Below are positions 38,845 to 39,112 of a stretch of 64,000 nt of DNA, in pieces. A program made the translations under genes and the position numbers. Within the stretch, counting starts at the first letter, position 1; each line of letters starts with the position of its first letter. The stretch spans positions 2,208,001 through 2,272,000 of the forward strand of contig OZ241362.1 in the NCBI GenBank assembly GCA_965200315.1. The letters are read 5' to 3'. Below the pieces are notes generated by a model, which was not told the origin of the DNA, ran no database searches, and saw only the letters and a program-made list of their open reading frames with translations. Source of the stretch: Candidatus Latescibacterota bacterium. GTDB taxonomy: Bacteria > Latescibacterota > UBA2968 > UBA8231.

Positions 38845-38958
38845 TTACAGGCAAATAGGGCTAGGGCAATGACAGTGGCAGCAGGTGCAGCAGGAGGCCC
38901 TGATAAACGCTGGCGACATATAGCCATCAAAGGACTTCGATACGACTTTGAGCTTCAT
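38845..38958 (-). CDS. RiPP precursor peptide 2 (37 aa): MKLKVVSKSFDGYMSPAFIRASCCTCCHCHCPSPICL
   Basis: Hand-translated; absent from the ORF track. SD AAGGAGG at 38973-38967, 8 nt from ATG. First 17 residues match precursor 1 at 16 positions. Confidence 0.92.
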   Translation of the reverse strand: MKLKVVSKSFDGYMSPAFIRASCCTCCHCHCPSPICL

Positions 38959-39001
38959 CTTGATTTCCTCCTTTGAGCGGGCTCAATTACAAAATAGACT
39001 A

Positions 39002-39112
39002 CTAAAATGAGATTGTGATGGTACAGTGACAGTGGCAGCAGCAGCAGGGTGCGGCGAGCTTCGCTGGCGACATATAGCCATCAAACGAGTTCGATACGAC
39101 TTTGAGTTTCAT
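39002..39112 (-). CDS. RiPP precursor peptide 1 (36 aa): MKLKVVSNSFDGYMSPAKLAAPCCCCHCHCTITISF
   Basis: SD AAGGAGG at 39127-39121, 8 nt from ATG 39112. Cys/Thr/Ser-rich C-terminus; heads the YcaO/SagB operon. Confidence 0.92.
   Translation of the reverse strand: MKLKVVSNSFDGYMSPAKLAAPCCCCHCHCTITISF

Follow-up and report, generated by a model that had tools for sequence, protein, structure and literature searches.

Which peptide do two very short genes of a Candidatus Latescibacterota bacterium encode, and why does a TonB-dependent receptor lie in the same operon? The genes, preB and preA, stand at positions 38845 to 39112 of a 64,000-nucleotide stretch of contig OZ241362.1 (positions 2,208,001 to 2,272,000 of the contig), the whole of which is here called the window. 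They are almost certainly precursor genes for a ribosomally made peptide with post-translational modifications (RiPP) of the streptolysin S (SLS) class. The operon that they head is most likely, as judged from sequence, a streptolysin-S-class thiazole/oxazole-modified microcin or linear azole-containing peptide (TOMM/LAP) system in a diderm of the Latescibacterota lineage. Our preferred explanation, to which we give a probability of roughly 45%, is that the product would be a polythiazole peptide exported for antagonism, and that a receptor pair resembling the Hus system of Porphyromonas gingivalis would handle it at the envelope.

Tandem precursor genes

The first precursor gene, preB (39002-39112, minus strand), starts at an internal ATG within a 91-amino-acid (aa) open reading frame (ORF) and encodes the 36-aa peptide MKLKVVSNSFDGYMSPAKLAAPCCCCHCHCTITISF, with the leader MKLKVVSNSFDGYMSPA and the core CCCCHCHCTITISF. 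It is followed in tandem, after 43 nucleotides (nt), by preA (38845-38958, minus strand), whose 37-aa product MKLKVVSKSFDGYMSPAFIRASCCTCCHCHCPSPICL has the leader MKLKVVSKSFDGYMSPA and the core (S)CCTCCHCHCPSPICL. In a DNA alignment from the AAGGAGG box to codon 17, 62 of 66 bases were identical in the two genes (4 differences); the DNA coding for CCHCHC, CTGCTGCCACTGTCA(T/C)TG, is common to both, and the tails diverge. Homologous precursors, one to three per locus and each with an AAGGAG box, were recovered by tblastn and ORF extension at the same position in 19/19 further loci of the genus, and the resemblance between preA and preB is therefore not due to chance. The original prediction had described duplicated precursors with a constant leader, a shared CCHCHC and a variable tail, preceded by near-identical DNA from the Shine-Dalgarno box through the leader. 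That description holds throughout, and the core sequences that it gave were exact.

Modification and export genes

The genes downstream of preA lie on the same, minus strand. The SagC-like E1/ThiF-type cyclodehydratase partner (37530-38639, 369 aa; ThiF E 5e-12) also matched TIGR03603 at E 1.4e-12, below the cut-off of that model, and the TIGR03882 leader-binding domain at E 4e-4. Next is B' (36647-37450, 267 aa), a divergent protein for which weak profile and PDB matches (TIGR03605 E 2e-5, below cut-off; 3eo7 E 0.009) point to a nitroreductase fold; BLASTP found no significant similarity between it and SagB, and a B' homologue also stands beside SagB in distant clusters. The SagB-type flavin mononucleotide dehydrogenase itself (35670-36650, 326 aa; Nitroreductase E 5e-21) reached 141.1 bits against a TIGR03605 cut-off of 78.4. 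It is followed by an ABC-2 permease of uncertain start (34883-35734; ABC2_membrane E 4e-21) and by a SagD-type YcaO cyclodehydratase of about 490 aa (33411-34883; YcaO E 6e-52), which scored 221.7 bits against the TIGR03604 cut-off of 219.25. The 547-aa ORF that begins at a TTG is over-extended for this gene, as relatives align from about residue 57, and the 5.36-Mb genome has no other YcaO gene. A CPBP/CaaX-type intramembrane protease, SagE-like (32667-33395, 242 aa; Rce1-like E 2e-16), precedes the ATP-binding cassette (ABC) ATPase (30991-32679; ABC_tran E 2.6e-29), whose DrrA/SagG-like part (residues 1 to about 330) continues into a helical domain that resembles HusA (residues 335-561).

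The operon is assigned to the SLS class because its YcaO and dehydrogenase exceed the SagD and SagB cut-offs and are accompanied by ThiF/SagC-like, CPBP and ABC-2 proteins. The exporter and the YcaO chemistry that had been proposed for the locus are thus both represented, the former by the permease and the ATPase. A cytolysin or bacteriocin, which the original prediction had offered only as an alternative to a metallophore, belongs to the class that enzyme and precursor homology would favour. The guanine-plus-cytosine (GC) fraction is 0.45-0.48 over 32-40 kb of the window, 0.53-0.55 over 28-32 kb and 0.58-0.62 in the flanks. As a separate observation, the YcaO frame is broken into two pieces in two loci of the genus (L041 of genome G026 and L042 of G029; G and L numbers label genomes and loci), by gene decay or by an assembly frameshift.

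The receptor and its HusA-like partners

The TonB-dependent receptor that had been noted as co-oriented with the precursors is indeed encoded on the same strand (28748-30985, 745 aa), with its start codon 5 nt past the ATPase stop. It carries a signal peptide and a CarboxypepD_reg N-terminal extension, and its Plug match is weak (E 0.006). Twenty nucleotides further on begins the gene for a periplasmic TPR-like protein with a signal peptide and a predicted haemophore fold (27945-28727, minus strand, 260 aa); signal peptides were assigned by eye. A model of this protein (predicted local distance difference test 89.5) had as its top PDB match by template modelling (TM) score, by a wide margin, 6bqs, the HusA of P. 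gingivalis (TMq 0.62, TMt 0.78, root mean square deviation 3.5 over 203 columns, 22% identity). Consensus TPR designs gave lower E-values than the HusA match, but poor TM. A profile of seven family members matched HusA at E 1.1e-16 in one long stretch, and the window protein as a single sequence did so at E 0.0036. An atlas look-up of the TPR-like protein returned generic 'TPR protein' clusters from diderm phyla only.

The domain fused to the ATPase is paralogous to the mature HusA-like protein, with 42% identity and the invariant residues of the family kept. The fusion was present in every Latescibacterota cluster examined, while the ATPases of distant clusters are without it and match only about residues 19-324. 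In a complex prediction the fused domain and the unmodified precursor gave a score of 0.01, which speaks neither for nor against binding.

HusA is described as a lipoprotein whose hydrophobic groove binds haem as well as metal-free porphyrins and does not coordinate the metal, and which passes these ligands to the TonB-dependent receptor HusB in a two-component uptake system; the hus operon is described as also encoding a winged-helix regulator (HusC) and a membrane protein (HusD). The latter two genes are absent from the window operon. In three genus loci (L037-L039), however, 1.1 kb separates ATPase and receptor, and in L037 this gap is occupied by an HTH_34 winged-helix gene (E 1.4e-23) and by an ORF of 201 aa that, on inspection by eye, resembles a membrane-protein gene; judging from the same 1.1-kb gap, L038 and L039 would carry both genes as well. 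An HTH_34 protein is also encoded upstream of the receptor in L045, from another genus. Because of the HusA homology, the adjoining TonB receptor and the winged-helix and membrane genes of some relatives, the pair is, on the strength of sequence and model comparisons, regarded as a Hus-like module.

Distribution and core diversity within the genus

The window genome is G000 and its genus is designated g1, the members of which are not independent samples. YcaO was found in 20 of the 30 other genomes of the genus and was not found in the 6 genomes first sampled from other genera in the family; a survey of 168 genomes from the phylum added to those 20 and G000 only G104, which belongs to genus g11 of another family. 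Gene order was identical in the 19 retrieved genus loci: GltX, DEAD helicase, TPR, receptor, ATPase, CPBP, YcaO, permease, SagB, B', SagC-like and one to three precursors, beyond which GyrB-like and ParC-like genes follow on the opposite strand.

The 20 genus genomes hold 33 precursors (10 genomes with one, 7 with two and 3 with three). Leader residues 1-17 have a mean pairwise identity of 83%, with M1, K2, L3, S7, F10, P16 and A17 invariant, and are followed by a linker of variable length. The cores are hypervariable. Most are pure poly-Cys or Cys5-Gly7; the types include C8 with AITVY/ATIEIT-type tails, CCSCSCSSCC, C5-6 followed by Gly6-7, CNCNC, CCCNCNCC, CC(S/C)CHCNCC and CHCHC. Nine or more contiguous C/S/T residues occur in only 8/33. 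His is present in 11 of the 33 precursors (7/20 genomes) and CHCHC in 9 (5/20 genomes); because His is found in so few, it is dispensable within the genus. A near-twin of the window core CCCCHCHCTITISF, CCCCHCHCTVITMSP, was nevertheless found in three genomes whose enzymes form a long separate branch, and CCCCHCHCT(I/V)IT is retained over very divergent enzyme lineages. A hidden Markov model (HMM) built from 23 of the 33 precursors and searched against 1.84 billion representatives gave 10 matches at E<=0.001, of which 8 were true precursors of the same lineage (3/8 with His), and no additional lineage was found in that search.

A wider family with His-interrupted cores

Clusters with the SagC-like/B'/SagB/CPBP/ABC set were found by a YcaO alignment search, at 33-40% YcaO identity, in 35 loci: 17 from genome records and 18 from metagenome contigs, many of them short. 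Relatives at 45-58% YcaO identity are known without genomic context, and co-occurrence counts omit them. The titles of the genome records include Thermoanaerobaculia, Acidobacteriota, Vicinamibacterales, Herpetosiphonaceae, Frankiaceae, Egibacteraceae, Polyangia, Nostoc, Nocardioides, Peptostreptococcus, Macrococcus and others. A recognisable precursor was present in 24 of the 35, and the distant leaders typically end in VV(A/S)PGG, as SagA does. Six of these precursors were compared with family models: four matched the streptolysin S model TIGR03602 (E 1.5e-5 to 0.09) and one the listeriolysin S model (E 9e-7), all below cut-off.

His occurs in the core at 15 of the 24 distant precursor loci and C-H-C-H at 11, for example as WCHCHV, CCHCHCH or GGWCCHCHCC; the core of the G104 cluster (locus L062, YcaO 63%) is CCSHCSHCSNC. 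CCHCHC cores were found in at least six differently labelled lineages. Conservation of His, on which the metal-binding part of the original prediction depended, was thus seen only in part, in that the residue is missing from two thirds of the genus precursors but C-H-C-H recurs across the distant set. Separately, two loci (L066 16088-17458 in Thermoanaerobaculia and L073 15714-17093 in Polyangia, as labelled) share a conserved amidohydrolase gene between CPBP and ABC ATPase, which is absent from the window.

Divergence across the genus loci

Protein distances over 20 loci set the operon apart from its surroundings. The mean p-distance was 0.063 for four flanking housekeeping genes, 0.207 for the four enzymes, 0.200 for ATPase, CPBP and permease, and 0.146 for receptor plus TPR-like protein. 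Enzyme distances were uncorrelated with those of the flanks (Spearman -0.10, Mantel p 0.73) and tightly related to those of the ABC and CPBP proteins (0.72), and the enzyme clades sort by core type. For these reasons the block from precursors to ATPase behaves like a collection of long-diverged alleles that have passed from species to species, with the receptor pair at its edge (receptor plus TPR against ABC/CPBP distances, 0.50). Such a pattern is typical of antagonism and immunity loci. Siderophore loci show a like pattern, but there the receptor co-varies with the product, and such co-variation is not clear here.

Is the Hus-like pair part of the system?

The pair is probably coupled functionally to the product. 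The receptor follows the cluster in 20/20 genus loci, in G104 and in a distant metagenome locus, L136. Among the 15 genomes of genus g11, YcaO and the receptor orthologue each occur once, in the same genome, G104, and both cluster and pair are missing from the other 14; the G104 locus shows none of the genes that flank the cluster in g1. In L136 (YcaO 36%) a receptor gene with matching domain order (36% identity) comes directly after the ABC genes, together with a HusA-like gene (32%). In L147 (YcaO 34%, core GGWCCHCHCC) two HusA-like genes, one with a signal-like N-terminus and one without, stand directly before YcaO. The original prediction had proposed that co-occurrence of the receptor with homologous clusters be checked; it is seen in the genus, in G104 and in L136, but in the other 34 of the 35 distant loci no receptor was found beside the cluster, and the pair also occurs where there is no cluster.

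By the preferred explanation, the 17-residue leader would dock the peptide on the SagC-like/YcaO cyclodehydratase, as the chemistry of the family suggests. Cys, and perhaps Ser/Thr, would be cyclised to thiazolines and oxidised to thiazoles by the SagB/B' pair, if SagBCD-type chemistry is a guide, giving short polythiazole runs broken by His, with each His of C-H-C-H-C between two thiazoles. The CPBP protease would remove the leader and the ABC-2 pump would export the product, presumably a membrane-active peptide of the bacteriocin or cytolysin type with a core under diversifying selection. By analogy with the porphyrin groove of HusA, the HusA-like domains may bind the flat polythiazole stretch, the ATPase domain on the cytoplasmic side of the exporter and the separate protein in the periplasm beside the receptor; binding to that part of the molecule would tolerate variable tails. 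The receptor pair would then serve passage through, or capture at, the outer membrane, in export, immunity or recycling. Its position after the exporter and the precedent of Oar (see below) would allow outward transport. For an antagonistic role of the product, taken by itself, we consider the odds to be about even.

Several observations weigh against this explanation. As to the peptide, preA and preB gave zero matches to NCBIfam at E up to 10, TIGR03602 included, and their longest C/S/T runs (6 in preA, 4 in preB) fall below the 9-10 contiguous residues of SLS-type cytolysins. As to the pair, homology with the HusA/HusB import system would favour uptake over export. No HusA-like gene was found in 33 of the 35 distant loci, many of which are short contigs, and at the Polyangia locus HlyD and MacB/FtsX genes, absent from the window, follow the ABC-2 transporter in place of a Hus-like pair. 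Receptor orthologues (71-77% identical) with a HusA-like gene and without YcaO occur in unrelated contexts in G032 and in 8 of the 15 genomes of g8, a genus of another family. In two g1 genomes (G007 and G030) the TOMM genes have been replaced by another cassette, with the receptor and TPR genes kept. The distances of receptor plus TPR track those of the flanks (Spearman 0.42, Mantel p 0.004) above those of the enzymes (0.19, p 0.06). Finally, a third HusA-like paralogue, 71% identical to the cluster protein, is solitary (G000:C1:3075565-3076347; L200 9473-10372), lying between a hybrid histidine kinase and a sulfatase gene in DNA of normal GC with no adjacent receptor.

The alternative that survives best is that the pair is a neighbour only, an independent porphyrin or haem uptake operon that abuts the TOMM insertion site and has no link to the RiPP. 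The pair without YcaO in G032 and g8, its persistence through cassette replacement and the distances that track the flanks all speak for it, as do the membrane-protein and HTH_34 genes of L037-L039 and the HTH_34 gene of L045, which match the description of HusC and HusD. Against it stand the HusA-like domain on the TOMM ATPase itself, with its invariant residues, the joint presence and joint absence of pair and cluster in g11 away from the g1 flanks, and the repeated association at 34-36% YcaO identity and in different gene order in L136 and L147. Within g1, moreover, 8 genomes lack both cluster and pair, and the 2 with the pair alone keep a 3' remnant of the ATPase gene (the last 68 codons in G007 and G030). 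Taken together, we regard a mere neighbour as unlikely.

A secreted-and-recaptured carrier, a wider form of the original prediction, is quite unlikely in our estimate. On this account the thiazole/His peptide would be exported, would load either a metal ion on its thiazole and imidazole nitrogens or a His-ligated tetrapyrrole, and would be re-imported by the HusA-like protein and TonB receptor as porphyrins are by HusA/HusB. The re-uptake idea was strengthened by the finding that the partner of the receptor is a HusA-type homologue, with a copy of its domain fused to the exporter ATPase, and HusA/HusB is described as an uptake system with a groove for planar porphyrins. Receptor and exporter genes share one operon with a 5-nt gap between them, receptor and cluster occur together in G104 and L136, and genomes of related lineages hold the receptor only; receptor-only genomes are also known for shared siderophores. 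C-H-C-H in 11/24 distant loci and the CCCCHCHCT(I/V)IT core kept across divergent enzymes point the same way, and a copper amine oxidase gene follows the L136 pair, in this single case (9693-11417, E 3e-83; its place next after the receptor and HusA-like genes may be coincidence).

However, because 22 of the 33 genus precursors are free of His (C8, C5G7, CNCNC), with receptors that remain 81-88% identical, a fixed coordination site is not conserved. The receptor also occurs without the cluster, and the operon and its surroundings gave no gene for an inner-membrane importer or a metal regulator and no known metal riboswitch. Known RiPP metallophores in the literature searched are made by MNIO enzymes and not by YcaO, the characterised members of this enzyme class are all described as toxins, and the CarboxypepD_reg extension places the receptor in the Oar subclass, which is described as including a secretion transporter. 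Secretion followed by re-uptake thus gains from the identity of the partner protein and loses from the freedom of the receptor and the variability of His.

A microcin-B17-like gyrase poison with the divergent GyrB-like/ParC-like genes as a resistant target copy is very improbable: the type IIA topoisomerase pair does begin on the opposite strand, 564 nt upstream of preB, and microcin B17 is described as a gyrase-poisoning azole peptide, but the pair is conserved across the genus much as the other flanks are (83-95% identity), stands at the same site without the TOMM cluster in L043, L044, L198 and L199, and comes with no pentapeptide-repeat immunity gene seen in a domain scan of the cluster proteins, and the precursors are without the Gly-rich pattern of microcin B17. 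The idea that gyrase is the target was rejected, since the only two PF00521 genes in the genome are this one and a GyrA in an 850-aa frame, and there is no extra copy.

Comparison with known systems

The closest likeness is to the streptolysin S class (sagA-I; clostridiolysin S, listeriolysin S and BorA of Borrelia). The two have in common a cyclodehydratase made up of discrete SagC-like and SagD-type YcaO proteins, together with a SagB dehydrogenase, a protease of the CaaX/CPBP type and an ABC-2 transporter. In both, the precursors are short, and a leader is followed by a Cys-rich core and a C-terminal tail that varies; in distant relatives the leader still ends in VAPGG, and matches to the SLS and LLS (listeriolysin S) models fall just below cut-off. 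The cytolysin-class gene set, as given by Cox et al. 2015, includes a CaaX-like protease and an ABC transporter and agrees with the genes of the window operon, and SLS-type cytolysins are defined by Molloy 2015 by 9-10 contiguous heterocyclisable residues. The present system differs in its diderm Latescibacterota host, in the His between Cys and the run of 4-6 residues, in the extra nitroreductase-fold protein B', in the lack of a TIGR03602 match in the window precursors, and in the HusA-like domain on the ATPase and the TonB receptor and HusA-like gene in the operon.

With the Hus system of P. gingivalis the locus shares a HusA homologue, by fold and profile, that adjoins a TonB receptor; the likeness of that receptor to HusB is one of gene position and description. 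Identity to HusA is about 22%, the window protein has a signal peptide without the lipobox Cys in contrast to the lipoprotein HusA, the pair lies within a RiPP operon, and a second copy, cytoplasmic, forms part of an ABC ATPase. By its domains, with CarboxypepD_reg (PF13620) ahead of the plug, the receptor also resembles Oar of Myxococcus xanthus, a TonB transporter described as needed for secretion of PopC; unlike the case considered here, Oar handles a protein and not a peptide.

Methanobactin systems have a dedicated TonB-dependent receptor. Methanobactins, bufferins and bulbicupramide also resemble the present system in having Cys-rich ribosomal precursors whose Cys become N/S heterocycles. 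These RiPP chalkophores are described as products of MNIO/DUF692-type enzymes with partner proteins, which form oxazolone-thioamide or thiooxazole groups. Here, in contrast, azoles would be formed by YcaO and dehydrogenase, and no MNIO (DUF692/MbnB-type) domain was found among the 10 proteins scanned from 26717-38639. Microcin B17 is likewise a linear azole peptide of a Gram-negative producer with an ABC exporter; it differs in being Gly-rich, in having isolated azoles and bis-azoles and in its gyrase target, whereas the topoisomerase genes here are housekeeping genes.

LAP clusters in sponge-associated Latescibacterota are listed, without analysis, in an antiSMASH survey. In the open full-text literature, supplements excluded (and with them the tables of precursors in Cox 2015 and Molloy 2015), we found no YcaO-made metallophore, no LAP cluster with a TonB-dependent receptor, no CCHCHC or WCHCH core motif and no HusA-like protein in a RiPP context. 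What appears to be new here is a form of SLS-family cluster in which His interrupts the cores, the dehydrogenase is split into a pair and a Hus-like module is built in.

Control regions, transcripts and neighbouring DNA

The region upstream of the precursor genes (39113-39440, minus strand, promoter/5' leader) is conserved in blocks over 20 loci. In the window and 19 further loci the blocks in the approximately 330 nt before the first precursor gene include a CTGAGGC/GCCTCAG palindrome, and they may be promoter or operator sequence. The intergenic region holds one imperfect inverted repeat, and the 218-nt upstream leader folded no better than shuffled sequences (z -0.03). Between preA and the SagC-like gene lies a hairpin with a 14-bp stem and no T-tail (38749-38784, minus strand; region fold z -2.94), likely a transcript end or attenuator. 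An Rfam scan of 38500-39800 found no family besides a chance miRNA match on this hairpin. A scan of the window for Fur boxes found 0 sites at <=3 mismatches, with an E. coli-type consensus that is uninformative for this phylum.

Of the sampled words of the sequence, 77% and 64% were present in two metatranscriptomic runs from a single study, and the best run holders are labelled as sponge metagenome. Contigs from these RNA libraries span nearly the whole 18-kb stretch, flanks included, and may owe something to DNA carry-over. The precursor genes are on a separate contig in both runs (38800-39488 and 38779-39439), with one end at the hairpin. Contig depth, which cannot rank genes, was 15.1 and 8.65 for the precursors against approximately 3.5-3.8 and 1.7 for the SagC-like gene. 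These observations hint, weakly, at a precursor transcript that is short and abundant.

Divergent from the precursors, on the plus strand, is the pair of genes for a GyrB-like protein (610 aa) and a short ParC/GyrA-like protein (629 aa) at 39677-43398, apparently a second type IIA topoisomerase of the organism, compact in size. Next, at 43657-46057 (plus strand, GC 0.44), come a BanI-like restriction endonuclease gene or fragment (214 aa, covering profile positions 126-331 only) and a gene for an N6/N4 DNA methylase that has an HNH-repeat. In most loci of the genus this stretch is missing and Rpe lies directly after ParC; methylase matches occur there in L029, L030 and L041. A second low-GC stretch (14900-17900; 0.46 at 16-18 kb) comes after a 695-aa protein with a CHU_C/T9SS-type C-terminal domain, and its ORFs of 201, 290, 188 and 340 aa gave no significant Pfam families.

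The cassette that takes the place of the TOMM genes was seen at the same chromosomal site in three genomes (L043 1379-9489, L044 11015-18887 and L198 3343-11241, of G007, G030 and G027), with a GC fraction of about 0.39-0.46. It encodes transglutaminase/GT4, GT2-TPR, C39 peptidase, CPBP and Yip1 proteins and may be another exported-peptide system, perhaps glycocin-like. G027 has it without the receptor or TPR gene, and G015 has other DNA at the site.

Conclusions

Streptolysin-S-type peptides are known as toxins of Gram-positive bacteria and spirochaetes whose structures and targets are poorly defined. The clusters described here add a large, phylogenetically scattered relative in which His or Trp is interleaved with Cys and the dehydrogenase is a split pair. 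In some diderm lineages haemophore-fold proteins and a TonB receptor lie within the operon, with a HusA-like domain on the export ATPase. If the HusA-like proteins bind polythiazole, this would show how a very hydrophobic RiPP transits, or is recaptured at, the Gram-negative envelope, and would extend the ligand range of the HusA fold beyond porphyrins. Should the operon instead prove to represent a widespread, hitherto undescribed SLS branch of thiazole-His-thiazole peptides under HusA-like and TonB handling that act as secreted-and-recaptured carriers of metal or tetrapyrrole, which we hold to be improbable, it would be the first 'phore' of YcaO origin and also the first case of a RiPP tied to Hus-type uptake. 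The conserved leader, the hypervariable cores and the exchanged cassette together amount, in these uncultured symbionts of sponges, to a naturally occurring library of cores that vary around a single enzyme set.

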